Origin: Acidimicrobiales bacterium
Lineage (GTDB): Bacteria > Actinomycetota > Acidimicrobiia > Acidimicrobiales > DATDAH01
Direction of reading: 5' to 3'
DNA length: 64,000 bases
Assembly (NCBI GenBank): GCA_016794585.1
Contig: JAEUJM010000026.1
Location: 1,444-65,443, forward strand
Part shown: piece by piece, positions 4,549 to 57,263 of the stretch
Position numbering within the stretch: the stretch's first letter is position 1
Layout of the letters: each line of letters starts with the position of its first letter
The notes under the pieces: generated by a model
Told to the model about the DNA's origin: nothing
The model's input: the letters and a program-made list of their open reading frames with translations, nothing else
Databases searched by the model: none
Program-made: the position numbers and the translations under genes

Positions 4549-6153
4549 ATGAGCGATCGAGCGACGCCCGCAGACGCCGAGGACGGCATGCCGGAGGGCA
4601 GTCGCCGCCTTCAGGTCCTGCTGGCCATGGCCATGTTCGTCCTGGTGGTGGACACGTCGCTGATGAACGTGTCCATCTCGGCGGTGATCGACGACCTCGA
4701 CACCACCGCCAGCGGGGTCCAGTCGGCCATCGCTCTCGAGGCCCTCGTGTCCGCCGCCTTCATCCTCATCAACTCGAAGATGGGCGACCTCATCGGCCGC
4801 AAGCGGGCCTACACCCTCGGCCTGATCGCCTACGCCCTCGGGGCGCTGGCCATGACGCTGGCGCAGAGCCTCACCGCCATCGTCATCTTCTGGGCGATCA
4901 TCGGTGGCCTCGGCGCCTCGCTCCTGCTCCCGGCCATGCAGTCGCTCATCCACGGCAACTTCACCGGCCGGGCCCAGAAGCAGGCCTACGCACTGGTGGG
5001 CGCCGCCGCCGCGATCGCCGCGGCGGTCGGGCCGCTCCTGGGCGGCTTCGTCACGACCTACCTCTCGTGGCGGGTCGGCTTCGCCCTCGAGGTCGTCATC
5101 ATCGGTGTGGTCCTCTCGCAGATCGGCCTGATCAGGGACGTGCCTTACACGGGGTCACGCAAGGTCGACGTCGTTGGCGCGGCGCTGTCGGTGGTCGGCA
5201 TGGGCGGCGTCGTGTTGGGCATCCTCGTCTGGCAGGAGGGTGGCGAGTTCGTCGTGCTGCTGGTCGCCGCGGGCGCCGTCGCCCTCGGATCGCTCGCCAG
5301 GTGGCTCGTGCGCCGCAAGCGACAGGGATCGGTGACACTGCTGGACCCGGACCTGTTCCACCATCCCAACTTCACCGCGGGTGTCTCGGCCCAGATGATG
5401 CAGCAGATCGCGCTGGGCGGCGTGATGATCGCGCTGCCGCTGTTCCTCCAGATGACGCTCGAGTACAACGCCATGAAGGCGGGCCTCTCGATGGCCCCGC
5501 TCTCACTGACGATGTTCGCCACCGCGGTCGTGGCCGGGAAACGGGCCGGCCGGCATCGCCCGGCGGTCATCGTGCGTGCCGGGTTCCTCCTGGCCTCGAT
5601 CGGGCTGGCCGCGATGATCCCGCTCGTGCCGAGGGTCGACAGCGGCTGGTACCTCGTGCTCCCGCTCGTGGCCGTCGGCTGCGGGTTCGGTCTGCTCGTC
5701 TCCCAACTCAACAACTACACGCTCGCCCCGATCGAGGACGATCGCATCAGCGAGGCCGCTGGCGTGAACTCGGCCTCCGGCAACTTCGGGCTCTCGTTCG
5801 GCCTGGCGGTGGCCGGTGGCGTCCTGCTGGCGGCACTCTCGTTCCGCTTCACCAATCAGGTGCAGGACAGCACCGTGATCCCGCCCGACCAGCAGGCACA
5901 GATCACTGCCGTCCTCGAGGACGATGCCGAGGTCATGAGCAACACCCAGCTCGACGCGCTGATCACCGAGGAGACACCGGAGGTCGAGGCCGCGGTGCTC
6001 GCCATCAACGACGACGCCCGAAACCTCTCGTTGCAGGTGGCGCTGCTCGTCCCCGTCCTCGCCGGCCTCCTCGGCCTGGCGAACTCGTTGCGCATGGTCA
6101 GGCTCCCCGACATCGTTCCGGCGGGCGACCTCGACGGCATGGACTTCGGCTGA
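4549..6153 (+). CDS. MFS transporter, DHA2 (EmrB/QacA-like, 14-TMS) type
   Basis: Start at ATG 4549 (MSDRATP). 'VLLAMAMFVLVVDTSLMNVSISAV' and 'GDLIGRKRAY' motif A are present. About 14 hydrophobic segments. Confidence 0.8.
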   Translation: MSDRATPADAEDGMPEGSRRLQVLLAMAMFVLVVDTSLMNVSISAVIDDLDTTASGVQSAIALEALVSAAFILINSKMGDLIGRKRAYTLGLIAYALGALAMTLAQSLTAIVIFWAIIGGLGASLLLPAMQSLIHGNFTGRAQKQAYALVGAAAAIAAAVGPLLGGFVTTYLSWRVGFALEVVIIGVVLSQIGLIRDVPYTGSRKVDVVGAALSVVGMGGVVLGILVWQEGGEFVVLLVAAGAVALGSLARWLVRRKRQGSVTLLDPDLFHHPNFTAGVSAQMMQQIALGGVMIALPLFLQMTLEYNAMKAGLSMAPLSLTMFATAVVAGKRAGRHRPAVIVRAGFLLASIGLAAMIPLVPRVDSGWYLVLPLVAVGCGFGLLVSQLNNYTLAPIEDDRISEAAGVNSASGNFGLSFGLAVAGGVLLAALSFRFTNQVQDSTVIPPDQQAQITAVLEDDAEVMSNTQLDALITEETPEVEAAVLAINDDARNLSLQVALLVPVLAGLLGLANSLRMVRLPDIVPAGDLDGMDFG

Positions 6154-12230: not shown

Positions 12231-14894
12231 TCAGATGGCCGCCCGGTCTGGGAGAAATTCGCCGACGGCGCAGGAGTAGCCCGCGGTGCCGGGGCCCTGC
12301 TCGTGGCGCTGCCCGTCGGGAAGGACGACGTCGGCGAAGGCGCCGGGCGGGACCTCGACGTCGAGGTCGAAGCGGCCGGTCTCGATCCGCCAGGCGGATC
12401 GGGCGCGGCCGCGCCGGCTGTCGTGGACCGCCTCCGCGTGGGTCAGGCCGCCCCCGGGCAGGGGCGCCACGGTGAAGCGCTCGTACGCGGGGTGGTCGGG
12501 GTCGGGCCGGAGCCCGGCGACGTGGCGGTGCAGGAAGGTGACGACGGCACCCTTGCTGTAGTGGTTGAGCGAGCCGTCGCCCTGGGCGTCGACGCCCTCC
12601 CAGTGCTCCCAGATCGTGGTCGCCCCGCGATCGACCATCGCCAACCACGACGGCGGCGTGTCCTGGAACAGGAGGCGGTAGGCGAGGTCGAGGTGGCCGT
12701 GGTCGGCCAGCACGGGCAGCAGGTACGGCGTGGCCAGGAACCCCGTGGTGAGATGGTCGCCGGCGGCGTGGACGAGCTCGGCGAGTCGGTCGGCCGTCGC
12801 CGCCCGCAGGTCGTCGGGGACGAGGTCGAACGCCAAGGCCCGCACCAGGTTCGGCTGCGTGTCCGGGGCGATCCGCCCGTCGTCGGCGATGAACTCTGCC
12901 CGCCATGCCGCGAGGCTGCGGTCGGCGAGCTCCCGGTAGCGCTCCGCCTCCTTGTAGCGGCCGAGGAGGCCGGCGATCTGGCCGAGCCGCCGGGCGGACA
13001 GGTGCAGGTAGGCCGTGGCCACGTCGGCGAGGTCGGCCTCCCGGGTGAAGACGGTGGTGGGATCCGAGTCGGGCTCGCACCACTCGCCCCAGTGGAAGCC
13101 GGTGTCCCAGAGGTACGTCTCGTGGTCGGCCGGCTCGGGTCGGCTCGCCGCTCGGGTCGGGTGGCGGTCGTTCGCGGCCGTCGTCGCCGCGAAGTCGACC
13201 CAGGCGGCCATCGAGTCGAACTGCTCGGTGAGGAACCGCTCGTCGCCGTACTCGACCCACATCTCCCAGGGCACGAGCACGGCAGCATCGCCCCAGCCAG
13301 AGGAACCGGTCATGAAGCGGGCGAGGTCGTGGTCGTACGCCGCAGGGCCGGCGGGGTCCGGCGTGAAGTTGGGGACGCGGCCGTCAGGCCACTGGTCGGC
13401 GCGCAGGTCGCGCAGCCATTTGGCCGAGAAGCCGGCCACGTCGTAGAGGAAGGCGGCCGTGGGGGCGAAGATCTGCCAGTCGCCGGTCCAGGGCGCCCGC
13501 TCGCGCTGCGGGCAGTCGGTGGGCACGTCGCAGGCGTTGTCCCGGAAGCTCCAGATGGCGGCCTCGTGCAGCCGCTCGAGGCGGTCGTCGCTGCACGAGA
13601 ACCAGCCCGTCCGCACGAGGTCGGTGTGGACCACGACACCGGTGACGTCGTCGGCGGTCAGGGGCGCCTCGTGGCCGTCGACCTGGACGTACTGGAAGCC
13701 GTGGGTCGTGTGCCGGGGCTCGAAGGTGTCCGTGGGCTCGCCGCGCGAGACGACCTGATCGACCTGGCCGGGCGACAGCGCCTCCTGCTTCATGAAGTCG
13801 AACGGCACCAGGTGGTCGAGGGTCACGCGGCCGGCCTCGTCGAGCATCTCCCCGTGGGTGAGCGTGGTCGTGGCGCCGGCGGGGCCGAGCGAGCTCAGGC
13901 GCACCCAACCGTTGATGTTCTGACCGAGGTCGACGACGTCGACCGCGCCGGCCCCGTCGCCGACCCGGGTCACCGAGAGGGGACGCAACTCCTCGGTCCG
14001 GCGCACCGGCGGCGCCGGCGAGGACGTCAACGTGGCGAAGCCGAGGTCGTCACGCGCCGCGCACGGCCGCCAGCCGTCGCGGTCGCCGAACCCCGGCGTC
14101 GACCACCCGTCCTGTCGGAGACGGAGGTCGGCGGCCTCGCCGTCGATGAGGTCGGCGCGCACGATCTCGCCGGTCGAGGACCGCCAGTCCGGCCCGGTGC
14201 CGACGACGACGCGGCCGCCGTCATCGAGCTCCACCACCACCTGGACGAGCAGCGCGACCTGCGATCCGAAGCAGTCGTGCTCACGGGTGAACCCGTTCTT
14301 GCCGCGGAACCACCCGTCGCTCAGTACGGCGCCGACGGCGTTCGGCCCGGGCCCGACCAGGTCGGTGAGGTCGTAGGTCTGGACGTCGAGGTTCGCCCGG
14401 TAGGCGGTCGACCCGGGTGCCAGCTCGATGTCGCCGGCGCGGCGGTTGTTCACGAACAGCTCGTACAGACCGTGCGCGGTGGCGTAGGCGCGGGCCCGGG
14501 CCACCGTGGCCTCGGCGGGCAGGTCGAAGGTGGCGCGCAGCAGTTGGGCCGGGCGCTCGCCCGCGGGGGCGACCTCACCCTCGGCAGGGGAGATCCACGA
14601 CGCGGACCAGTCGCTCGGGTGGAGCAGGCCCGTCTCCCACGTCGAGGTGTCCGACCAGTCGCTCTCACCGGCGTCGGTCCAGACCTTGACCTGCCACGTC
14701 ACGCTCTCCCCGGATCCGACCCCGGGGCCGGGCCAGGGGACCCCGATGTGTCGCTCACCCTCGATCCGGCCGGACTCCCACCCGTCGGCCCGGACGGCGA
14801 AGGCCTCCTGGCGCGCTGCGCCGGCGGGCAGCCACCAGGAGAGGCGCGGCGCCGCCACGGCGAGGCCCAGCGGTGCGACGAGGTGTTCGACCAT
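12231..14894 (-). CDS. alpha-L-rhamnosidase (GH78), apparently cytoplasmic
   Basis: 'DCPQRERAPWTGDWQ' and the overall GH78 domain order. Start taken at MVEHLVAPLG (ATG 14894). No signal peptide seen. Confidence 0.8.
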   Translation of the reverse strand: MVEHLVAPLGLAVAAPRLSWWLPAGAARQEAFAVRADGWESGRIEGERHIGVPWPGPGVGSGESVTWQVKVWTDAGESDWSDTSTWETGLLHPSDWSASWISPAEGEVAPAGERPAQLLRATFDLPAEATVARARAYATAHGLYELFVNNRRAGDIELAPGSTAYRANLDVQTYDLTDLVGPGPNAVGAVLSDGWFRGKNGFTREHDCFGSQVALLVQVVVELDDGGRVVVGTGPDWRSSTGEIVRADLIDGEAADLRLRQDGWSTPGFGDRDGWRPCAARDDLGFATLTSSPAPPVRRTEELRPLSVTRVGDGAGAVDVVDLGQNINGWVRLSSLGPAGATTTLTHGEMLDEAGRVTLDHLVPFDFMKQEALSPGQVDQVVSRGEPTDTFEPRHTTHGFQYVQVDGHEAPLTADDVTGVVVHTDLVRTGWFSCSDDRLERLHEAAIWSFRDNACDVPTDCPQRERAPWTGDWQIFAPTAAFLYDVAGFSAKWLRDLRADQWPDGRVPNFTPDPAGPAAYDHDLARFMTGSSGWGDAAVLVPWEMWVEYGDERFLTEQFDSMAAWVDFAATTAANDRHPTRAASRPEPADHETYLWDTGFHWGEWCEPDSDPTTVFTREADLADVATAYLHLSARRLGQIAGLLGRYKEAERYRELADRSLAAWRAEFIADDGRIAPDTQPNLVRALAFDLVPDDLRAATADRLAELVHAAGDHLTTGFLATPYLLPVLADHGHLDLAYRLLFQDTPPSWLAMVDRGATTIWEHWEGVDAQGDGSLNHYSKGAVVTFLHRHVAGLRPDPDHPAYERFTVAPLPGGGLTHAEAVHDSRRGRARSAWRIETGRFDLDVEVPPGAFADVVLPDGQRHEQGPGTAGYSCAVGEFLPDRAAI

Positions 14895-14943
14895 CAGGCG
14901 GGTCGGTGCAGGCACGAAAGCGCTCCGAGGTTCGGGAACAGTG

Positions 14944-14958
14944 GATAACAACGTTATC
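14944..14958. promoter_or_regulatory. operator-like palindrome site 3 (GATAAC-AAC-GTTATC, perfect)
   Basis: 50 nt upstream of the rhamnosidase ATG, in the divergent region shared with the ABC operon. Confidence 0.55.
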
Positions 14959-15011
14959 TGAGGTCGTTGCGTGCTGCGGGGTCGTCGGGGCGGCCCGACG
15001 GGCACGGCCGT

Positions 15012-15026
15012 CAGAACAACGTTATC
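15012..15026. promoter_or_regulatory. operator-like palindrome site 4 (CAGAAC-AAC-GTTATC)
   Basis: 68 nt from site 3. -10-like TATCTT facing the ABC operon. Confidence 0.5.
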
Positions 15027-15060
15027 TTTCTGTTGTCAGGCGCCGCCTGTCGGTTTATGT

Positions 15061-15082
15061 TTGATCGAACAGATTCGATCAA
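15061..15082. promoter_or_regulatory. perfect 9-4-9 inverted repeat TTGATCGAA-CAGA-TTCGATCAA
   Basis: Lies in the rhamnosidase/ABC divergent region. Shares the 12-mer TGATCGAACAGA with the rhaI/deoR divergent region (31136..31147). Confidence 0.55.
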
Positions 15083-15117
15083 CCGGCCGGAGCGGGCGGC
15101 CGGCAGGGGGGAACGCG

Positions 15118-24184: not shown

Positions 24185-24696
24185 CCGCAGTCGACCAGCC
24201 CGACCAGCCCGACCAGACAGGTCGCGCCGCCGAGGTCCAGGCCGCGCTCGAGCACTACCTCGCGGTGCGCGAGCGACTCGACCGCGGCGAGGGCGACTGG
24301 GCCGAGTTCGCCGAGATGTTCACCGAGAACGCCGTGTTCGTCGACTGCGCCTGGGGGCGGGTCGAGGGCCGCGACGCCATCGCGCAGATGTTCCGGGAGG
24401 CGATGCCCGGCGTCGACTTCACCTTTCCCGTCGACTTCAGTGCCGTCAATGGCGACTGGATCATGGTGAAGTGGCGCCAGGTGCTCCCGGGCACGCGACC
24501 CGACGGACGGCCCTACGAGCAGTCGGCGGTGTCGACCATCCGGTACGCCGGCGACGGCCTCTTCGACTACGAGGAGGACCTGCTCAACATGGTCCACGCC
24601 ATGGAGGACGTGGTCGAGTCCGGGTGGCAGCCGGGCCCGGACTTCACCGCGCCCCCGCCGAACCCGAACCGGGACTTCAGCCCGCCGCCGCGCTGA
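24181..24696 (+). CDS. NTF2/SnoaL-like domain protein
   Basis: ATGA overlap with the upstream gene. The pattern 'FTENAVFVD...GRDAI..MF...DWIMVKW' fits a SnoaL-like fold. Confidence 0.6.
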   Translation: MTAVDQPDQPDQTGRAAEVQAALEHYLAVRERLDRGEGDWAEFAEMFTENAVFVDCAWGRVEGRDAIAQMFREAMPGVDFTFPVDFSAVNGDWIMVKWRQVLPGTRPDGRPYEQSAVSTIRYAGDGLFDYEEDLLNMVHAMEDVVESGWQPGPDFTAPPPNPNRDFSPPPR

Positions 24697-25903
24697 CCGT
24701 CAGCAGCTGGGCGTCGAGATCGTCCACCGTGGCGGCGCCGAGCAGGCTCATGGTGCGGACCACGTCGGCGTGGAACCACTCGAGGACGCGGTCGACGCCG
24801 CGTTCGCCGGCCGCGCCGAGGCCGTAGAGGTAGGCCCGGCCGGCCATGGCCGCGGTGGCGCCGGCGGCGACGGCCTTGACGATGTCGCTCCCACGGCGGA
24901 CACCGCCGTCACAGATCACCTCGGTGCGGTTGCCGACGGCGTCGGCCACGGGAGCGACGAGGGGGAAGGTGGCGGGCGCTCCGTCGAGCTGTCGTCCGCC
25001 GTGGTTGGAGAGGGCGACCGCGTCGACGCCCCGCTCGGCGGCGAGGACCGCGTCCTCGACGCCCTGGATGCCCTTGACCACGATGGGCCCGTCCCAGATC
25101 GTGCGGAGCCAGTCGATGTCCTCCCACGAGAGGGTGGGGTCGAACTGGGCGTTGATGTAGTCGGAGAGCGTGACGGGTGAGGCGCCGTCGCCCACGCCGC
25201 GACCGACCACGTTGGCGAAGCGGATGGGCTCGCCCCGAACGAAGTCCAGGGTCCAGCCGGGGTGGCGGGCACCGTCGAGGATGGTCCCCGGGCCGATCAT
25301 CGGGGGCAGGGAGAACCCTCGGCGGACGTCCCGCTCGCGACGGCCGAACACGGCGGTGTCCACCGTGAGCACCAGCGCCTCGTAGCGGGCGGCGGCGGCC
25401 CGCTCGACCATCTCCTGCACGAGGCCGCGGTCGCGCCAGGCGTAGACCTGGAACCAGAGCCGCCCGTCGCTCACGGCCCGCACCTCCTCGATGGAGCGGG
25501 TGCTGAGCGTGGACAGCGTGTACGGGACGCCGGCGCGTTCCGCGGCGCGGGCGACGGCGAGCTCGCCGTCGGGGTCGGCGATGCGGGTGAACCCGGTGGG
25601 GGCGAGGACCAGCGGCAGTGCCGCGTCACGACCGAGGATCGTGGCGGCCGGGTCGACCCGCTCGATGCCCCGGAGGACCCGGGGCCGGAAGGCCACGTCG
25701 GCGAACGCCTGCTGGTTGGCGGCCATGGTGTGTTCGTCCTCGGCGCCGCCGTCGATGTAGTCGAACACCCCACCCGGCAGGCGCCGCCGGGCGATGCGGC
25801 GCAGGTCGGCCACCGACGCCGCCCTGGCCAGGCGGCGCTCGAGCCGGTCGGTCTCGACCCGCTTGAAGCGGATCACCGAGCGCAGGGTCTCGATCGTCCT
25901 CAC
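24677..25903 (-). CDS. FMN-dependent alpha-hydroxy-acid dehydrogenase (L-lactate dehydrogenase LldD-like)
   Basis: GTGA overlap with the rhaB stop. 'GVFDYIDGGAEDE' and 'SNHGGRQLDGAPAT' are present. Confidence 0.85.
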   Translation of the reverse strand: MRTIETLRSVIRFKRVETDRLERRLARAASVADLRRIARRRLPGGVFDYIDGGAEDEHTMAANQQAFADVAFRPRVLRGIERVDPAATILGRDAALPLVLAPTGFTRIADPDGELAVARAAERAGVPYTLSTLSTRSIEEVRAVSDGRLWFQVYAWRDRGLVQEMVERAAAARYEALVLTVDTAVFGRRERDVRRGFSLPPMIGPGTILDGARHPGWTLDFVRGEPIRFANVVGRGVGDGASPVTLSDYINAQFDPTLSWEDIDWLRTIWDGPIVVKGIQGVEDAVLAAERGVDAVALSNHGGRQLDGAPATFPLVAPVADAVGNRTEVICDGGVRRGSDIVKAVAAGATAAMAGRAYLYGLGAAGERGVDRVLEWFHADVVRTMSLLGAATVDDLDAQLLTVSAAAG

Positions 25904-27261
25904 GACGGGTCGTACCGCCGGAGCGGGGTGGAGGCGGCGATCTGGGCCCGGATGTCGTCGAGGCCCGCGGGCAGGGCGCCGGCGGCGCGGGCCTGGACGA
26001 CGACGTTGCCGAGGGCGGTGGCCTCGACGGGGCCCGCGATCACCGGGCGGCCGGTGGCCTCCGCGGTGAGTCGGCAGAGCAGCTCGTTCTGAGCGCCGCC
26101 GCCGACGACGTGGACGACGTCGATCTCGCGCCCGGCGATGCGGACGGCGTCCTCGAGGGTGCGGGCGTAGCCGTCGGCCAGCGAGTCGAGGATGCAGCGG
26201 ACGGTCTGCGGCGGGTCGAGGTCGGCGCCGCCCACGGCGGTGGCGATGCGCTCCGGCATGCCGCCCGGGGGGATGAAGGCGGGGTCGTCGACGTCGATGC
26301 GGGGCCCGCCGGCGGGGAGGGCGGCGGCGGCGGCCAGCAGCGCGTCGAGGTCGTCGCGGGGCCACTCCCGGAGGCACTCCTGGAGCAGCCAGAGCCCACC
26401 CACGTTGCGCAGGAACCGCGTGCGCCCGTCCACCCCGGCCTCGTTCGTGAAGTTGGCCGCCCGGGCCGCCTCGGTGAGCACCGGCTGGTCGAGCTCGAGG
26501 CCGACGAGCGACCACGTGCCGCTGGCGATGTACGCGAAGCGGTCGGTGGTGGCTGGCACGCCGACGACCGCGGAGGCGGTGTCGTGCGAGCCGACGGTGA
26601 CCACCGGCGTGCCGTCCGCCGTCGTGCCCCGCCGCGCCCCGGGTGGCTGCAGCGGGGGGAGCAGCGAGGCCGGGACCCCCATCCGGTCCAGGAGCTCGGC
26701 CGACCAGTCGCGAGCGCGGGCGTGGAGCAGCCCGGTGGTCGAGGCGTTCGTGACCTCGGTGCCGAGGTCGCCGGTCAGCCAGTAGGCGAGCAGGTCGGGG
26801 ATCAGGAGCAGGTGGGCGGCCCGACCCCAGAGGGGTCCGCGCTGCTCGGCGGCAAGCTGGTAGATCGTGTTGAAGGGCAGGAACTGGAGTCCGTTGACGG
26901 CGAAGAGCTCGTCGGGCGGGATGCGGCGGTGGACGTCGTCGATGACGTCGGCGGTGCGGTCGTCCCGGTAGGCGACCGGGTCGGCGAGGAGCTCGCCGTC
27001 GGCGTCGAGCAGCCCGTAGTCGACCGCCCAGGTGTCGATGCCGATCGACGCCGCCTCGGGGACCAGGGCGAGCCCGGCCTGCACCTCGGCGTGGAGGCGG
27101 CGGATGTCCCAACGCAGGTGCCCGTCCCGCTCGACCACCCCGTTGGGGAAGCGGTGCCGCGCCTCCAGCTCGATCCGACCGTCCTCGTGCACGGTCCCGG
27201 CCATGACCCGTCCGCCCGACGCCCCGAGGTCGACCGCGGCGAGGACGCAGATCTCGCTCAC
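25900..27261 (-). CDS. rhaB: rhamnulokinase (FGGY family)
   Basis: Start at GTG 27261 (VSEICVLAAVDLGASGGRV). FGGY motifs and rhamnose-gene context. Confidence 0.85.
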   Translation of the reverse strand: MSEICVLAAVDLGASGGRVMAGTVHEDGRIELEARHRFPNGVVERDGHLRWDIRRLHAEVQAGLALVPEAASIGIDTWAVDYGLLDADGELLADPVAYRDDRTADVIDDVHRRIPPDELFAVNGLQFLPFNTIYQLAAEQRGPLWGRAAHLLLIPDLLAYWLTGDLGTEVTNASTTGLLHARARDWSAELLDRMGVPASLLPPLQPPGARRGTTADGTPVVTVGSHDTASAVVGVPATTDRFAYIASGTWSLVGLELDQPVLTEAARAANFTNEAGVDGRTRFLRNVGGLWLLQECLREWPRDDLDALLAAAAALPAGGPRIDVDDPAFIPPGGMPERIATAVGGADLDPPQTVRCILDSLADGYARTLEDAVRIAGREIDVVHVVGGGAQNELLCRLTAEATGRPVIAGPVEATALGNVVVQARAAGALPAGLDDIRAQIAASTPLRRYDPS

Positions 27262-27508
27262 GCCGGGACCAGTGCGGGGGCGCGAAGAACAGACAAAGGC
27301 GCTTTCGAGGGAGCGCAGCACGCAGCCGGTCGACCTCGACCCCCGTGGCCACGTTCCGTGACCGAAGGCCGCCGCGACAGGGCCGGGCGACCACCGCCGA
27401 CCTGTTCTTTGACGGGTTGACCGCGCCATGCGCCGGCGCCGTCAAGTGGACAAAGAACGAGAGTGCGGCCCGATGGGTGACCACCGTGCGTGGTGAAGGG
27501 GCGAACCC

Positions 27509-27790
27509 GGCCGCCGATCGGTTCAACGACCCCTTGAAGAGCAGCTGTTCGGCCCGCAACCGAGCGCGCGGGGTTGCCGCCGACCGGCGCCGGGTGCGCC
27601 TGGCTGTCGTCGGTCGGGGCCGAGGGCGCAGGGCTGCCGCCGACTGGCGCCACGTCGCCTTCGAAAGCAGCTCTTCCGCTTGGCCGCAAGCGGGCCGAGC
27701 TGCCGCCGACCGGCGCCACGACCCCTTCAAGAGCCGCTCCTCCGCCCAGCACCGAGCGAATCGAGCCGCCGCCGACGAACCTCGGCCGCG
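27509..27790. repeat. tandem repeat array, about 4.5 units of 66/60/66/66 bp, inside the 625-bp rhaEW-rhaB spacer
   Basis: The anchor GCCGCCGA(C/T) recurs at 27510, 27576, 27636, 27702 and 27768. Units share CTGCCGCCGACYGGCGCCACG...CCTTCRAARAGCNGCTCYTCCGC. More degenerate units extend toward 27280. Confidence 0.85.
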
Positions 27791-27886
27791 GGAGCCCCCG
27801 ATCCGGGACCACGGTGACGGCGTGGACGGCGTCAGCGTTTCGCCGGAAGCAGGACCCGGGCGCCATCGTGACCGCCGGCACGATCG

Positions 27887-29914
27887 TCAGCGGAGGAAGG
27901 CGGCGGCGACGCCGGCGTCGACCGGAATCAGCAGGCCGGTGGTGTGGCTGAACTCGTCGGAGCAGATCGCCGTGACGGCGCTGGCCACGTGCTCGGGCAG
28001 CACCTCGCGCTTGAGGATCGTGCGCTGGGCGTAGAAGGCGCCGAGCTCGTCCTCGGGCACCCCGTAGACCGCAGCCCGCTGGGCCCCCCAGCCGCTGGCG
28101 AAGATGCCGCTGCCCTGCACCACGCCGTCGGGGTTGATGCCGTTGACCCGGATGCCGTGCTCGCCCAGCTCGGCGGCGAGGAGGCGCACCTGGTGGGCCT
28201 GGTCCGCCTTGGTGGCGCTGTAGGCGATGTTGTTCGGGCCGGCGAAGATCGCGTTCTTGGAGGCGATGTAGACGATGTCGCCGCCGAGTCCCTGGTCGAC
28301 CATCGCCCGGGCGGCGGCCTGCGCCACCAGGAAGCTGCCCTTGGCCATCACGTCGTGCTGGCGGTCCCAGTCGGCCTCGGTGGTCTCGAGCAGCGGCTTG
28401 GAGACGGACAGGCCGGCGTTGTTGACCACCAGGTCGACACCACCGAAGGCCAGGACGGTGGCGTCGACCGCCGCCCGCACGGCGTCGGCGTCGGTCACGT
28501 CCACGGCGACCCCGACGGCCACGTCGGTCGAGCCGAGCTCGGCGGCCACCGCCGCGGCCTGGTCGGCGTCGAGGTCGGCGATGACGACGCACGCACCGTC
28601 GGCGGCGAGGCGGGCGGCGATGGCCCGGCCGATGCCGCTGGCCGCACCGGTGACGAGCGCGATCCGGCCGGCGTGGCGCTTCGGCTTCGGCAGGCGCCGG
28701 AGCTTGGCCTCCTCGAGGGCCCAGTACTCGATGCGGAACTTCTCGGCCTCGCTGATCGGGGTGTAGGTGGATACCGACTCGGCGCCCCGCATCACGTTGA
28801 TGGCGTTGACGTAGAACTCGCCGGCGACGCGGGCGGTCTGCTTGTTGGCGCCGTACGAGAACATGCCGACGCCCGGCACCAGGATGATCGAGGGGTCCGC
28901 GCCCCGCATCGCCGGCGAGTCGGGGGCGGCGTGGTGCTCGTAGTAGGCGGTGTACTCCGCCCGGTACCGCTCGTGGAGGGCGACGAGCTCGTCCTCGGTG
29001 CTGCCGGCGGGGACCACGAGCGGCTTGATCTTCGTGCGCAGGAAGTGGTCGGGGCAGGAGGTGCCGAGGGCGACCAGCCCGTCGAGCTTCTCGCGTGACA
29101 GGAAGTCGAGGACCACGTCGGTGTCGGTGAAGTGCCCGACCACCCGCTGGTCGCGCGAGGCGATCGCGCGGAGGCGCGGCGCCAGCCGGGCCGCCTCGGC
29201 CCGGCGGTGCTCGGGCGACCGCGGAGCGCGCACGGTCACGACGGGCCCGAACGGCTCGGCGTCGCCGTGCGCGTCGAGGTGGGCCTGGGCGGTGTCGATG
29301 ATCCACCGGCTGTTGGCCTCGGCCTCGTCGCTGGTCGCCCCCCAGGCGGTGATGCCGTGCCCGCCGAGGATCACGCCGATCGCCTCCGGGTGGGCGTCGT
29401 GCACGGCGGCGATGTCGAGCCCGAGCTGGAAGCCCGGCCGGCGCCACGGCACCCACACGACCCGGTCGCCGTAGATCTCCTTGGTGAGCTGCTCCCCGTC
29501 GGCCGCCGTGGCGATGGCGATGCCGGCGTCGGGGTGCAGGTGGTCGACATGGGCGGCGGTGACCAGCCCATGCATGGCCGTGTCGATGGACGGCGCCGCG
29601 CCGCCCTTGCCGTGGCAGCAGAAGTCGAACGCCGCCACCATCTCGTCCTCGTGCTCCTCACCCCGGTACACGTCGACGAGGGCGCGCATGCGGTCGAGGC
29701 GCAGGACCGCGAGGCCGTCCTCGGTGAGGGTGCCGAGGTCGCCGCCGGAGCCCTTCACCCAGAGCAACTCGACGTCGGCGCCCGTGGCGGGGTCGCGGTC
29801 GACGCCCTTGGCCGAGGTGTTGCCGCCGGCGTAGTTGGTCGTGGTCGGGTCGGCGCCGAGCCGGTTCGACCGGGCGAGGAGCGCCTCGACCTGGGGGTGC
29901 GCCACGGTGCTCAC
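27887..29914 (-). CDS. rhaEW: bifunctional rhamnulose-1-phosphate aldolase / short-chain dehydrogenase (lactaldehyde dehydrogenase)
   Basis: Start at GTG 29914 (VSTVAHPQVEALL), overlapping the rhaI stop (GTGA). N-terminal class-II aldolase-like half plus C-terminal SDR 'ALVTGAASGIGRA'. Confidence 0.85.
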   Translation of the reverse strand: MSTVAHPQVEALLARSNRLGADPTTTNYAGGNTSAKGVDRDPATGADVELLWVKGSGGDLGTLTEDGLAVLRLDRMRALVDVYRGEEHEDEMVAAFDFCCHGKGGAAPSIDTAMHGLVTAAHVDHLHPDAGIAIATAADGEQLTKEIYGDRVVWVPWRRPGFQLGLDIAAVHDAHPEAIGVILGGHGITAWGATSDEAEANSRWIIDTAQAHLDAHGDAEPFGPVVTVRAPRSPEHRRAEAARLAPRLRAIASRDQRVVGHFTDTDVVLDFLSREKLDGLVALGTSCPDHFLRTKIKPLVVPAGSTEDELVALHERYRAEYTAYYEHHAAPDSPAMRGADPSIILVPGVGMFSYGANKQTARVAGEFYVNAINVMRGAESVSTYTPISEAEKFRIEYWALEEAKLRRLPKPKRHAGRIALVTGAASGIGRAIAARLAADGACVVIADLDADQAAAVAAELGSTDVAVGVAVDVTDADAVRAAVDATVLAFGGVDLVVNNAGLSVSKPLLETTEADWDRQHDVMAKGSFLVAQAAARAMVDQGLGGDIVYIASKNAIFAGPNNIAYSATKADQAHQVRLLAAELGEHGIRVNGINPDGVVQGSGIFASGWGAQRAAVYGVPEDELGAFYAQRTILKREVLPEHVASAVTAICSDEFSHTTGLLIPVDAGVAAAFLR

Positions 29915-31077
29915 GCCCCCCAGCCGGCCTGGGCGCCGCCGACCCGCTCGGCCGCGATCCGCTCGGCGTACCCCGAGGCCGCGTAGGCGGCCATCGGGTC
30001 GGCGGGCAGCCCCCGACCGGAGCGCCACTCGGCGAGGTCGCCGCGCACGTCGGTGTAGAACGCGTCCATCAGGACCTCGTTCCCCGCCAGCACGTCGCCG
30101 GCCGACTCCGCGTCGGCGAGTGCCGACCGGTCCACGAGCAGGGCCCGGGCGGTCATCTCCTGGACGTTCAGCACGGAGCGGATCTGGCCCGGGATCTTGG
30201 CCTCGATGTTGTGGCACTGGTCGAGCATGAAGCTCACCTCGCTGTCCACGTCGTAGCCGCCGCCGCGCACCACCTCGAACAGGATGCGGAAGAGCTGGAA
30301 GGGGTCGGCGGCCCCGACGATCAGGTCGTCATCGGCGTAGAAGCGGGAGTTGAAGTCGAACGCCCCCAGCCGACCGAGGCGCAGCAGCTGCATCACGATG
30401 AACTCGATGTTCGTGCTGGGTGCGTGGTGACCGGTGTCCAGGCACACCACCGCCCGCTCGCCCAGGGCCAGGCACTGCACGTAGGCGGTGCCCCAGTCGG
30501 GCACGTCGGTGGCGTAGAAGGCGGGCTCGAAGAGCTTGTACTCGAGGACGAGGCGCTGGTCGTCCCCGAGGCGCTCGTAGACCCGGGCCAGCGAGTCGGC
30601 CAGGCGGTCCTGGCGGTCCCGCAGGTCGCCCTGGCCCGGGTAGTTCAGCCCGTCCGGCAGCCAGACCTTCAGGTCGCGCGAGCCGGTCACGTCCATGATG
30701 TCCACGCACTCGAGGCAGTGGGCGAGGGCCTTGGCCCGCACCCTCTCGTCGGCGTGGCAGAGCGACCCGAGCTTGTAGTCGTCGTCCTGGAACGTGTTCG
30801 TGTTGATGGTGCCGAGGCGCACGCCGCGGTCGGCGGCGTGCCGGGCCAGGTCGTCGTAGTCGTCCACGCGGTCCCACGGGATGTGCAGCGCGACCGACGG
30901 GGCCAGGCCGGTGTGGCGGTGGACCTCAGCGGCGTCGGCGACCTTCTCGTACGGGTCGCGGGGCACCCCCGCCTGGGCGAACACCTTGAACCGGGTGCCT
31001 GAGTTCCCGAAGGCCCACGACGGCAGCTCGATGGCCTGATGCTCCAGGTCGGCGCTGATGTCTGCGAAGGTGGCCAT
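29911..31077 (-). CDS. rhaI: L-rhamnose isomerase (TIM-barrel, Streptomyces/P. stutzeri type)
   Basis: Start at ATG 31077 after GGGAGGG. 'ELPSWAFGNSGTRFKVF' is present. Confidence 0.85.
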   Translation of the reverse strand: MATFADISADLEHQAIELPSWAFGNSGTRFKVFAQAGVPRDPYEKVADAAEVHRHTGLAPSVALHIPWDRVDDYDDLARHAADRGVRLGTINTNTFQDDDYKLGSLCHADERVRAKALAHCLECVDIMDVTGSRDLKVWLPDGLNYPGQGDLRDRQDRLADSLARVYERLGDDQRLVLEYKLFEPAFYATDVPDWGTAYVQCLALGERAVVCLDTGHHAPSTNIEFIVMQLLRLGRLGAFDFNSRFYADDDLIVGAADPFQLFRILFEVVRGGGYDVDSEVSFMLDQCHNIEAKIPGQIRSVLNVQEMTARALLVDRSALADAESAGDVLAGNEVLMDAFYTDVRGDLAEWRSGRGLPADPMAAYAASGYAERIAAERVGGAQAGWGA

Positions 31078-31111: not shown

Positions 31112-31147
31112 TGTTCTATCTTTGGAATACTCACATGATCGAACAGA
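31112..31147. promoter_or_regulatory. inverted repeat TGTTCTATC-N16-GATCGAACA (+GA) in the rhaI/deoR divergent region
   Basis: 8/9 complementary arms. The right arm is part of the 12-mer TGATCGAACAGA, also found at 15062..15073. Confidence 0.5.
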
Positions 31148-46293: not shown

Positions 46294-49017
46294 ATGGTCG
46301 ACTCGGGAACAACGTGTCGTGATCCGGGCGCCGGGACTCCGGGCACGGTCGTCCGCCAGCACTGGCGCATCACCGGCGTGGTGCAGGGCGTCGGGTTCCG
46401 GCCCCACGTCCACCGGCTCGCCTCGGCGCTCGACCTGGTCGGGACCGTGGCCAACGAGGACGCCGCGGTGGTCATCGACGTGCAGGGCCCGCCCGATCGG
46501 GTCGCCGAGTTCGGTCACCGGGTGCGGGCCGACGCGCCCCCGTTGGCTCGGATCGAGCGGGCCGAGGCGGTCGCCGCCACCCCCGTCGAGGGCGTGGAGG
46601 GCTTCCGCATCGTGTCCTCGCGCCGTCAGAAGAGGCAGGCCGGCGCCGCTCCCGCCGCCTGTCTCGTTGACGGCCCTGGCGGCGTGGCTGACGTCGGCCG
46701 GCCGCCGGTCGGCCGGTCCCGTCCGGGCGGGTCCCGCGTCGAGGTGGTCACGTCGCCGCCGGTCTTCGTGGCGCCGGACGTCGGCACCTGCCCCGCCTGC
46801 CTGGCGGAGGTGCTCGACCCGACCGACCGCCGCTACCGACACCCTTTCGCCAACTGCACCGACTGCGGCCCGCGCTACACGGTGATCCGGGACCTGCCCT
46901 ACGACCGTCCGGCGACGACGATGGCGGGCTTCGCGATGTGTGCGTCGTGCGCCGCCGAGTACGCCGACCCGGCCGACCGCCGCTACCACGCCCAGCCCGT
47001 GAGCTGCCCGGACTGCGGTCCGCAGCTGGCCTTCGAGGGGCTGGCTCGAAGCGGCGGGGCCGAGGCGCCGGAGCCGACTCAGATCGAGAACGGGCGTCCG
47101 GCGGCCGAAGGCGGCGCCGGTGGCGACGATCGAGGCGCGGAGCCGCGGGTCTCGGGCACCGACGCCGCGCTCGCCGCGGCGCCGCTGGCCTCGGGTACCG
47201 GCGCCGCCGATCGAGGCACCGTGCCGCGGGTCTCGGGCACCGACGCCGTGCTCGCCGCGGTGCAGGCCACGCTCGCCGCCGGCGGGATCGTCGCGCTCAA
47301 GGGCCTCGGCGGCTACCACCTCGTGTGCGACGCCACCCGACCCGACGCGGTGCGCCTCCTGCGCGAGCGCAAGGGGCGGGGCGACAAGCCCTTCGCGGTG
47401 ATGGTGCCCGACCTCGACGCGGCCCGGGCGCTGGCGGACCTCACCGACGACGAGGCGGCGGCGCTGGCCGACCCCGCCCGTCCCATCGTGCTGGCCCGGC
47501 GCCGCCCCGACTCGGGCCTCGCCGCCGAGGTCGCGCCCGGCAACCCGATGGTCGGTGTGCTCCTCGCCTACACGCCGCTGCACCACCTGCTGTTCCGGCC
47601 CGTCCCCGGCCACGCCACCGTCCCTCCCCGGGTGCTGGTGGCCACGTCCGGCAACCGGGCCGACGAGCCGATCTGCTTCGACGACGACGAGGCCCGGGTC
47701 CGCCTCGGCGACCTGGCCGACGCCTTCTGCACCCACGACCGGCCCATCGAGGTGCCGTGCGACGACTCCGTGGTGCGCCGGGTCGCCGGCCGGATCCAAC
47801 CCGTGCGGCGGGCGCGGGGCTTCGCCCCCGTCCCGCTCGCCCTGCCGTTCGAGGTCCCGCCCACCCTCGCCGTCGGCGGGGAGCTGAAGAACACCTTCTG
47901 TCTCGCCGCCGGAAGCCACGCCTGGGTCAGCCCCCACATCGGCGACATGGGCAACCTCGAGACCATGGAGGCGTTCGAGCGCAGCGTCGAGGCGCTCACC
48001 CGCATGGTCGGCGTCGAGCCCGAGGTCGTGGCCGCCGACGCCCATCCCGGCTACCTCAGCCGGCGCTGGGCGGTCGCCCACTTCGGCGACGCCGTCGTGG
48101 AGGTGCAGCACCACCACGCCCACGTCGCCTCGGTCATGGCCGAGCACGGCCTCGACGGCAGCCGGCCCGTCCTCGGCGTCGCCTTCGACGGCACGGGCCA
48201 CGGCTGGGCGGCGGACGGATCGGCCCAGGCCTGGGGCGGCGAGATCCTGCTCGCCGACCACGGCCACGCCGAGCGGGTCGGCCACCTCCGCCCTCTCCCG
48301 CTCCCGGGGGGCGACGCCGGCGTGCGCAACCCGTGCCGGGTGGCGGTGGCCTACCTCGAGGCCCTCGGCATCGACCCCGGTCCCACCCAGCCCGCGGTGC
48401 TGGCCTGCGACGAGGTCGAGCTCGGTGTGGTGCGCCGCCAGGTGGCCCGCGACGTCGGCTGTCTGGCGACGACGAGCATGGGGCGCCTGTTCGACGTGGT
48501 GGCCTCGCTGCTCGGGGTCCGCCACCGGGTGAGCTACGAGGCGCAGGCCGCCATCGAGCTGGAGGCGCTGGCCCAGCGGGGGCGATCCGGTGCGGTGCGC
48601 CTCGGTTTCGCCCGGAGCGGCGACGGGGTGATCGACCCCGCCCCGGTGCTCGCCGACCTCGTGGATGCCGTGGGGCGGGGCGTGCCCGTGGCCGACCTCG
48701 CCCTGGCCTTCCACCTCGCCGTCGCCGCCGCCGTGGTCGACGCGGTCGACGCGTTCACCCATGCGCCCGACGCCGCCGGAGCCACCGCCACCACGGAGGC
48801 CGCCGTCCCGGCGCCGCCGCCCGTCGCGCTGACCGGCGGCGTGTTCCAGAACGACCTGCTGGCGACGGCCACCCGTGCCGCTCTCGCCGCCGCGGGCCAC
48901 GAGGTGCTGGTCCACGGGCTCGTCCCGGCCAACGACGGCGGCCTGTCCCTCGGCCAGGCGGTTGTCGCCGGCCGGCGCTCGGTCGGAGCAGGACAACGAC
49001 GACAGGAAGGGGCCTGA
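46294..49017 (+). CDS. hypF: carbamoyltransferase HypF (with extra linker segments)
   Basis: Acylphosphatase domain 'ITGVVQGVGFRPHV'. Two Zn-finger pairs 'CPAC..CTDCGPRY' and 'CASC..CPDCGP'. YrdC-like 'KGLGGYHLVCDA' and a Kae1-like C-terminus. Confidence 0.9.
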   Translation: MVDSGTTCRDPGAGTPGTVVRQHWRITGVVQGVGFRPHVHRLASALDLVGTVANEDAAVVIDVQGPPDRVAEFGHRVRADAPPLARIERAEAVAATPVEGVEGFRIVSSRRQKRQAGAAPAACLVDGPGGVADVGRPPVGRSRPGGSRVEVVTSPPVFVAPDVGTCPACLAEVLDPTDRRYRHPFANCTDCGPRYTVIRDLPYDRPATTMAGFAMCASCAAEYADPADRRYHAQPVSCPDCGPQLAFEGLARSGGAEAPEPTQIENGRPAAEGGAGGDDRGAEPRVSGTDAALAAAPLASGTGAADRGTVPRVSGTDAVLAAVQATLAAGGIVALKGLGGYHLVCDATRPDAVRLLRERKGRGDKPFAVMVPDLDAARALADLTDDEAAALADPARPIVLARRRPDSGLAAEVAPGNPMVGVLLAYTPLHHLLFRPVPGHATVPPRVLVATSGNRADEPICFDDDEARVRLGDLADAFCTHDRPIEVPCDDSVVRRVAGRIQPVRRARGFAPVPLALPFEVPPTLAVGGELKNTFCLAAGSHAWVSPHIGDMGNLETMEAFERSVEALTRMVGVEPEVVAADAHPGYLSRRWAVAHFGDAVVEVQHHHAHVASVMAEHGLDGSRPVLGVAFDGTGHGWAADGSAQAWGGEILLADHGHAERVGHLRPLPLPGGDAGVRNPCRVAVAYLEALGIDPGPTQPAVLACDEVELGVVRRQVARDVGCLATTSMGRLFDVVASLLGVRHRVSYEAQAAIELEALAQRGRSGAVRLGFARSGDGVIDPAPVLADLVDAVGRGVPVADLALAFHLAVAAAVVDAVDAFTHAPDAAGATATTEAAVPAPPPVALTGGVFQNDLLATATRAALAAAGHEVLVHGLVPANDGGLSLGQAVVAGRRSVGAGQRRQEGA

Positions 49018-57054: not shown

Positions 57055-57083
57055 CCCGCCGTCCGCACCCGACACCAACGACC

Positions 57084-57128
57084 GAGCCACGACCCACCGA
57101 GCCACGACCCACAGAGCCACGACCGACC
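57084..57128. repeat. 15-bp tandem repeat x3 (GAGCCACGACCCA-NN) inside a T-depleted spacer
   Basis: Copies start at 57084, 57099 and 57114. The spacer 57055..57263 contains only 4 T in 209 nt on the + strand. Confidence 0.8.
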
Positions 57129-57263
57129 GACGAGCACCGAACCACCGAAACGGCCCGACGCAGCGGCCGAGGCTCCCGGCCCTGGCGCCACGAGCACCAC
57201 CGATCGAACCGCAGCACGCACACCGACCGACCGAACGAACGCACGAACCGAGGGGGACGCCCG

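Follow-up and report, generated by a model that had tools for sequence, protein, structure and literature searches.

What is a 625-nt stretch of DNA doing between two genes of a rhamnose operon, when in spacer-free relatives the start of the second gene lies 2 nt past the stop of the first? And how does this second gene stay translated? We addressed these questions in a window of 64 kb with about 73% G+C, the window being the whole stretch of DNA that was analysed. On its minus strand, rhaI, rhaEW, rhaB and a gene for an FMN-dependent dehydrogenase (lld) follow one another, and this order on one strand is also kept in relatives. A gene for a DeoR-family regulator lies divergently, from 31179. 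The rhaEW gene has a GC3 of 0.98 and is 72–85% identical to its orthologues (80+ loci). It ends with a TGA at 27889–27887, and the gap from this stop to the GTG of rhaB is 625 nt, exactly as the original prediction claimed. The best explanation of the gap is a lineage-specific minisatellite insert that encodes no protein and sits on the stop-start junction of two coupled rhamnose genes. It resembles the MIRUs (mycobacterial interspersed repetitive units) and contains a proposed relay ORF, and we consider this reading probable. The features discussed below are collected in Table 1.

Table 1. Features of the rhamnose operon, of the insert and of the related junction array (window positions, unless a locus of a relative, L with a number, is named)
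Feature	Position	Strand or junction	Description
rhaI	29911..31077	minus	
rhaEW	27887..29914	minus	Fusion of a class II aldolase domain and a short-chain dehydrogenase domain; Pfam Aldolase_II and adh_short
Whole insert	27262..27886	minus	From rhaEW stop to rhaB start; 625 nt; non-coding, lineage-specific
5' segment of insert	27777..27886	minus	Holds the ATG of the bridging ORF (27866–27864); only the first ~25 nt matched in L094
Core tandem array	27519..27776	minus	Four units; from TRF, repeat search, unit HMM and the 30-nt period of L094
U1	27776–27711	minus	66 nt
U2	27710–27645	minus	66 nt
U3	27644–27585	minus	60 nt; aligns with two 30-nt units of L094
U4	27584–27519	minus	66 nt
Local hairpin	27404..27458	minus	A+T-rich outer arms GTTCTTTG / CAAAGAAC
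Bridging (proposed relay) ORF	27258..27866	minus	202 codons; stops on the rhaB start codon, the two sharing GTGA
rhaB	25900..27261	minus	Rhamnulokinase, FGGY family; Pfam FGGY_N and FGGY_C; GTG start at 27261
lld	24677..25903	minus	FMN-dependent dehydrogenase (lactate/lactaldehyde-type); Pfam FMN_dh
Second array	L094 5011–5269 (also L095, L096)	rhaB-lld junction	259 nt; 60 nt x 3.8
Second array, start only	L082 7360–7462; ends of L083–L085		All four contigs stop inside the array

In the insert, the core of four tandem units is followed on its 3' side by a unique tail of about 250 nt. A tandem-repeat check with TRF revealed a period of 66 nt at 27633–27776 (score 169), and a repeat search returned three 82-nt copies that are 71–72% identical to the reference copy. 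The unit HMM matched three full units at E values of 1e-16 to 1e-18, the same units having gone into the model. Each 66-nt unit is composed of a 30-nt part and a 36-nt part. The original prediction had described an anchor, GCCGCCGAY, that recurs at 27510, 27576, 27636, 27702 and 27768. We find all of these occurrences on the plus strand with the spacing 66/60/66/66. The motif has 41 matches in the G+C-rich window, and the other 36 correspond to about 0.15 expected per 267 nt. The three small dyads described within the units are likewise present, though imperfect. Further, weaker units toward 27280 are unsupported, because the unit HMM finds none beyond the array in the direction of rhaB. It has no match below 27519, and the region below the array contains only one 27-nt match, of 70% identity, at 27394–27420.

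Neither blastn nor the unit HMM detected a further copy of the unit or the spacer elsewhere in the 64-kb window, and in the fetched loci of relatives the unit was found nowhere except in L094/L095. No copy of the spacer was found in plasmids, or in a scan of JGI metagenomes with a conserved 31-base pattern from the tail. We also considered a derivation of the spacer from the GGG motif of rhaB. This was rejected, as only a trivial match of 17–19 nt to GCCGCCGCCGAC was seen.

For comparison, we collected relatives of rhaB from the genomes of 80 species, and four closer lineages came from the contigs of public read-set assemblies. The closest species genomes belong to Acidimicrobiia (Acidimicrobiaceae MAGs and Desertimonas), with rhaB identities of about 70% and at most 72%. 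Among the 88 loci holding both genes, the rhaEW-rhaB gap measures −13 to 89 nt in 77, 129–270 nt in five and 396 nt in two (L094 and L095). In the remaining four (among them L062, L068 and L074), an extra gene of about 1.45 kb occupies the junction. The four closest lineages share 88–92% identity with the window in rhaB. Three of them are empty (L081, 92%; L082, 89%; L086, 88%), with CGC-TGA-CC-(A/G)TG-GCC spanning a 2-nt gap, and the fourth, L094, is filled (L094/L095, about 89–90%). The empty TGA-CC-ATG is also the outgroup state, and a precise deletion of the insert would restore the insert-free junction TGACCATG. The comparison of filled and empty junctions shows the spacer to be an insertion into a junction whose ancestral form is TGA-CC-ATG.

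The 396-nt spacer of L094/L095 aligns with that of the window from U3 on and has the same unique tail. It contains one 66-nt and two 30-nt units, and the window contains three 66-nt units and one 60-nt unit. Over the shared part the two spacers are 74.8% identical (25% divergence), and their alignment contains five 1-nt indels as well as one of 6 nt. Differences by codon position of the ORF number 23/41/34. In rhaB, the window and L094 differ by 6.8% at first positions, 4.6% at second and 20.5% at third. The divergence of the spacer is thus close to that of rhaB third positions and is spread over the phases, and therefore the spacer changes at about the rate of synonymous sites, with the frame ignored.

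Two lineages with about 89% nucleotide identity in rhaB contain different numbers of 66-nt units (three versus one). The three samples of the L094 population are identical wherever their contigs cover the arrays; the L096 contig is without the repeat part of the rhaEW-rhaB junction (j1). These comparisons show that the insert evolves at the neutral rate, and that whole units are gained and lost between lineages.

Each close lineage is made up, mosaic-like, of stretches shared with different others, and because of this a clean tree of gain and loss cannot be drawn. What the alignments do show is an insert that appears as present or absent among mutually mosaic lineages. We notice a patchy similarity in rhaB between L094 and L082, with 2–4 differences per 150 nt at about 4550–4850 of L094 and about 20 per 150 nt at the 5' end. 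Such patchiness indicates recent recombination among these lineages.

How, then, is rhaB translated behind the insert? It has no Shine-Dalgarno (SD) sequence: its SD duplex amounts to −2.2 kcal/mol, compared with −8 to −12.7 kcal/mol for window genes with a clear SD. A minus-strand ORF bridges the spacer, and its outline agrees with the original prediction in that 202 codons run from an ATG 20 nt past the rhaEW stop to a GTGA on the rhaB start. This ATG has only a weak SD-like pairing of −5.7 kcal/mol, and the TGA lies over the rhaB start simply because a serine codon, AGC or AGT, comes after the start codon; both points tell against a relay. The bridging ORF of L094 runs in another frame of the homologous sequence.

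The 2-nt arrangement of the spacer-free relatives suits coupling of rhaEW and rhaB by termination and reinitiation. With 625 nt inserted and no SD before rhaB, an ORF that carries ribosomes is the simplest way in which rhaB could be kept translated. The missing SD, together with a bridging ORF in both versions of the spacer in different frames, points to a ribosome relay. We regard relay translation of rhaB as plausible, and the evidence for it as suggestive, not strong.

Under the proposed mechanism, the insert would be transcribed within the operon mRNA, there being no convincing promoter or terminator inside it. Ribosomes that end rhaEW would restart at the ATG 20 nt downstream, cross the insert in the open frame and stop on the GTGA that holds the start of rhaB. 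The relay would thereby keep rhaB translated in spite of its having no SD of its own, and the relay peptide itself would be functionless. As the units are multiples of three, slippage or unequal recombination could change their number and the frame would stay open. An architecture of this kind has also been put forward for the MIRUs of mycobacteria.

On the other hand, the insert may be a neutral local duplication without any relay, that is, tolerated junk. Here rhaB would initiate independently, either SD-less or from an internal or leaderless transcript, and the open frame would be a by-product of 73% G+C and the copying of a stop-free unit. Stop codons are indeed not depleted. The original prediction had noted that several frames on both strands are open, and three of them are so throughout (sense 0, sense 2 and antisense 2), but this openness is unremarkable: the six frames hold 12 stops, and dinucleotide-preserving shuffles give 9.3 ± 2.6. 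An ORF with such end points occurs in 5.9% of shuffles for the window and 11.4% for the L094 spacer (6–11% per spacer), numbers that concern two homologous and not independent spacers and come from shuffling, which destroys repeats, where a copied stop-free unit spreads openness. For the short 259-nt array of L094, chance alone would be expected to yield a bridging ORF (P = 0.79).

The neutral rate of spacer divergence also agrees with a neutral duplication. Since no other copy of the unit was found in the 64 kb or in the relatives' loci, a local duplication without the character of a family fits equally well. Against it stand four observations. The rhaB gene is SD-less, whereas clear SDs are the rule for the well-defined genes of the window. 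No sigma-70-like promoter was found in the spacer. Reading the sequence before the rhaB GTG at leaderless distance, we found no suitably spaced TANNNT-like −10 element. Finally, the bridging ORF is present in both of the diverged and mutually frameshifted spacers. Weighing these points, we think a neutral duplication without relay rather unlikely, yet an alternative to be taken seriously.

A regulatory role is less probable still, and we rate it as a slim chance. In such a case, the repeats or the hairpin would be the target of a regulator, whether the DeoR-type RhaR or some other one, or the insert would contain an internal promoter or an element of RNA processing or stability, and rhaB-lld would be uncoupled from rhaI-rhaEW. 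Acidimicrobiia and Parafrankia relatives that have a DeoR-type regulator share the motif TGTGAG-N14-nACA upstream of rhaI. In the window, the putative operator for this rhamnose regulator is located upstream of rhaI at 31112–31135 (TGTGAGTATTCCAAAGATAGAACA). We built an operator weight matrix from the relatives, with the window's own site left out. It ranks 31112–31135 first at 34.6 bits, and nothing in the spacer exceeds −3.6 bits, at rank 276. The unit dyads are not retained in the L094 unit, and the nearest relatives (L081, L082, L086) have no spacer at all. The original prediction's array of regulator-binding dyads is thus not borne out for the DeoR protein.

At the RNA level, the array and the tail fold no better than shuffles (z −0.5 and −0.6), one weak terminator-like site is found in the spacer compared with 0.5 expected, and Rfam gave only chance-level matches (E of at least 2.8, far under the gathering scores). 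In favour of a regulatory insert is the hairpin at 27404–27458. Its A+T-rich arms are kept in L094, whereas the interior differs, and the 8-mer of the arm has two copies in the window, both in the hairpin (0.13 expected). The hairpin RNA reaches −33.6 kcal/mol with a z of −3.5, but the L094 version has a z of only −1.1. A MIRU-containing intergenic region, that of senX3-regX3, has been reported to have promoter activity (PMC4213456), which likewise favours regulation.

The next best region by the DeoR-type matrix is a cluster of A+T-rich palindromic sites at 15048–15085 (TGTTTGATCGAACA...TTCGATCA), in the divergent gap 14859–15117. This cluster could be the operator of some other regulator.

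The possibility that ORF 27866..27258 encodes a functional repeat peptide rich in Gly, Ala, Pro and Arg is very unlikely and already largely refuted. Its appeal lies in the 202 open codons, the ATG and the coupled GTGA end, and in a weak coding-like G+C signal, one phase reaching 0.9 but only over 27890–27740. The original prediction rightly stated that coding was not demonstrated. Its rough counts had placed the third-position G+C of the open frames below that of the rhaB start, and our values bear out the lower level: the phases of the spacer range from 0.53 to 0.93, compared with 0.97–1.00 at third positions of the flanking genes, whose GC2 is about 0.45. The spacer therefore has no GC3 signature. 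Differences between units are even by phase (6/5/6, 7/5/6 and 7/6/9), so no third-position excess exists among units, nor is there one between the orthologous spacers. The five 1-nt indels relative to L094 and the different open frame of L094 likewise argue against a protein, and the gene would be missing from the closest relatives.

No homologue of the 202-codon ORF was found among 5.8 billion clustered proteins with a word-indexed search. An exhaustive search of 1.84 billion representatives returned a sole match, P0121, a spurious hit to an unrelated repetitive ORF, and Pfam had no match in any of the three fully open frames. The spacer does not encode a conserved protein. We also considered an extension of rhaB up to an ATG at 27429. 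It was rejected because the added stretch shows no sign of coding and the corresponding ATG of L094 is out of frame with rhaB.

That the insert is the decayed remnant of a gene once present between rhaEW and rhaB is suggested by the ~1.45-kb extra gene in four of the 88 loci, but this is highly improbable, given the lack of Pfam matches in its three fully open frames, the short chance-level blastn matches of the spacer to the relatives' loci (those four included), the TGA-CC-ATG junction in outgroups and close relatives, and the tandem array at its core.

Of the three alternatives in the original prediction, the MIRU/VNTR-like array is thus the best supported, and the repeat mini-protein and the DeoR dyad array are not. 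Close relatives are filled or empty, the two filled lineages differ in unit number, and both keep a bridging ORF.

Is the insert an isolated event? A second array occurs in relatives at the next junction of the operon, rhaB-lld. The junction is empty in the window (25900–25903), in L081 and in L086, where the two genes overlap by 4 nt (GTGA), and it holds the 60-nt array in L094 and L082. The second array has CGTGA on both flanks. It is bridged by an ORF of 88 codons, which runs from the GTGA of the rhaB stop to the GTGA of the lld start. Contigs of four independent assemblies break within it. The similarity of the two junction arrays is not above that of shuffles.

The two arrays have several properties in common. 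Every period is divisible by three (66, 60 and 30 nt at rhaEW-rhaB and 60 nt at rhaB-lld). At the three filled junctions the downstream protein has a new N-terminus with Ser as residue 2 (GTG-AGC or ATG-AGT). The 12-mer CCGGCGTGAGCG is common to the 3' ends of inserts, at 27255–27266 in the window and at 5262–5273 of L094 (rhaB-lld), but it is just a hint, because it is common enough in G+C-rich DNA (six matches at one mismatch or fewer, versus 4.1 expected).

Counting as hints the periods, the TGA contexts, Ser2, CCGGCGTGAGCG and the assembly breaks, we speculate that both arrays could belong to a clade-specific class of frame-preserving minisatellite inserts. Members of such a class would sit at tight NTGA or TGA-NN-ATG junctions of coupled genes, and each would bring a downstream start codon and a relay ORF. 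The class would be an Acidimicrobiia analogue of MIRUs that arose independently of mycobacteria. This extension is tentative, and we would not at present expect it to hold.

We compared the insert with known systems, foremost the MIRUs (Supply et al., 1997), for which we relied on the summaries in PMC12548453 and PMC3184786. According to these sources, MIRU units are 40–100 bp long and a genome has about 40–50 loci; MIRUs insert at start codons and have an internal ORF coupled at −4, as reviewed in PMC12548453. The insert shares much of this anatomy. Its direct tandem units of 66/60 nt fall inside the 40–100 bp range, and the spacer lies between co-directional genes of a predicted single operon, on the start codon of the downstream gene. 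Both filled (window, L094/L095) and empty (L081, L082, L086) sites exist, and the unit number changes between lineages. An internal co-directional ORF overlaps the downstream start at −4, as it does in both arrays of L094.

There are also differences. Instead of Mycobacterium, the host is an Acidimicrobiia-like actinobacterium, and the array comes with some 250 nt of unique tail. The second junction array of the relatives is unrelated in sequence. Apart from this array and its homologue in L094/L095, no copy of the unit was seen in about 64 kb or in the relatives' loci. At the MIRU density of roughly one locus per 100 kb, the window should hold just 0.6 or so more, which gives this search little power. 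Membership of the MIRU family is not claimed, because the host differs, the likeness was judged by anatomy, and dispersal, a defining trait, is unseen in about 64 kb. On this comparison the insert is best described as a MIRU-like operon-junction minisatellite in an Acidimicrobiia-like genome, and its novelty is modest, not radical.

Other kinds of repetitive DNA were compared as well. Non-coding satellites in bacterial intergenic regions are generally known (PMC6749651). Like the intergenic minisatellites or VNTRs described there, the insert is a non-coding tandem repeat with a unit of 10–200 nt and a copy number that differs in related genomes. In contrast to them, it lies inside an operon and exactly on a stop-start junction, its periods are without exception divisible by three, and the bridging ORF is retained. 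The REP/BIME palindromes of enterobacteria likewise occupy non-coding DNA between the cistrons of operons, and one local hairpin is present here. However, the direct tandem repeat dominates in our case, the hairpin is single-copy and the window contains no dispersed family. An identity as REP/BIME, a dispersed palindrome of many copies, was rejected, since the one hairpin has arms that recur nowhere else in the window. A MITE was rejected as well: no terminal inverted repeat is found among 22 inverted pairs, and all that the two flanks have in common is TGA(C/G), itself the functional stop/start context. The bridging ORF itself resembles the relay or 'delivery' short ORFs (PMC12548453), whose product is irrelevant and which overlap the start of an SD-less gene by NTGA, but the candidate here has 202 codons, mostly repeats.

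If the relay is true, the locus would be an independent, non-mycobacterial case of repetitive DNA that has entered an operon with translational coupling intact, in which an ORF is kept open for the ribosome and not for its peptide. If the insert is mere neutral junk, the finding would be ordinary. For annotation, the 202-codon ORF should not be taken as a gene, and rhaB should not be started at the ATG at 27429. The locus could be used to mark length polymorphism in this uncultured group, and the arrays account for the breaks of short-read assemblies at these junctions in related populations.

The window holds other gaps and repeats. The second largest same-strand gap in our rough gene map, at 1589–2116, measures 528 nt, and no long-period repeat was found in it. 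A C/A-rich gap of 209 nt at 57055–57263, between thiolase-like and aldehyde dehydrogenase-like genes, contains short tandem repeats of 15 nt x 3.3 (ACCGAGCCACGACCC) and 27 nt x 1.9. At 47115–47284, an 81-nt tandem repeat with a nested 39-nt period lies in an 879-codon gene on the plus strand (46378..49017) that is supported by GC3, and this repeat appears to be coding, not intergenic.
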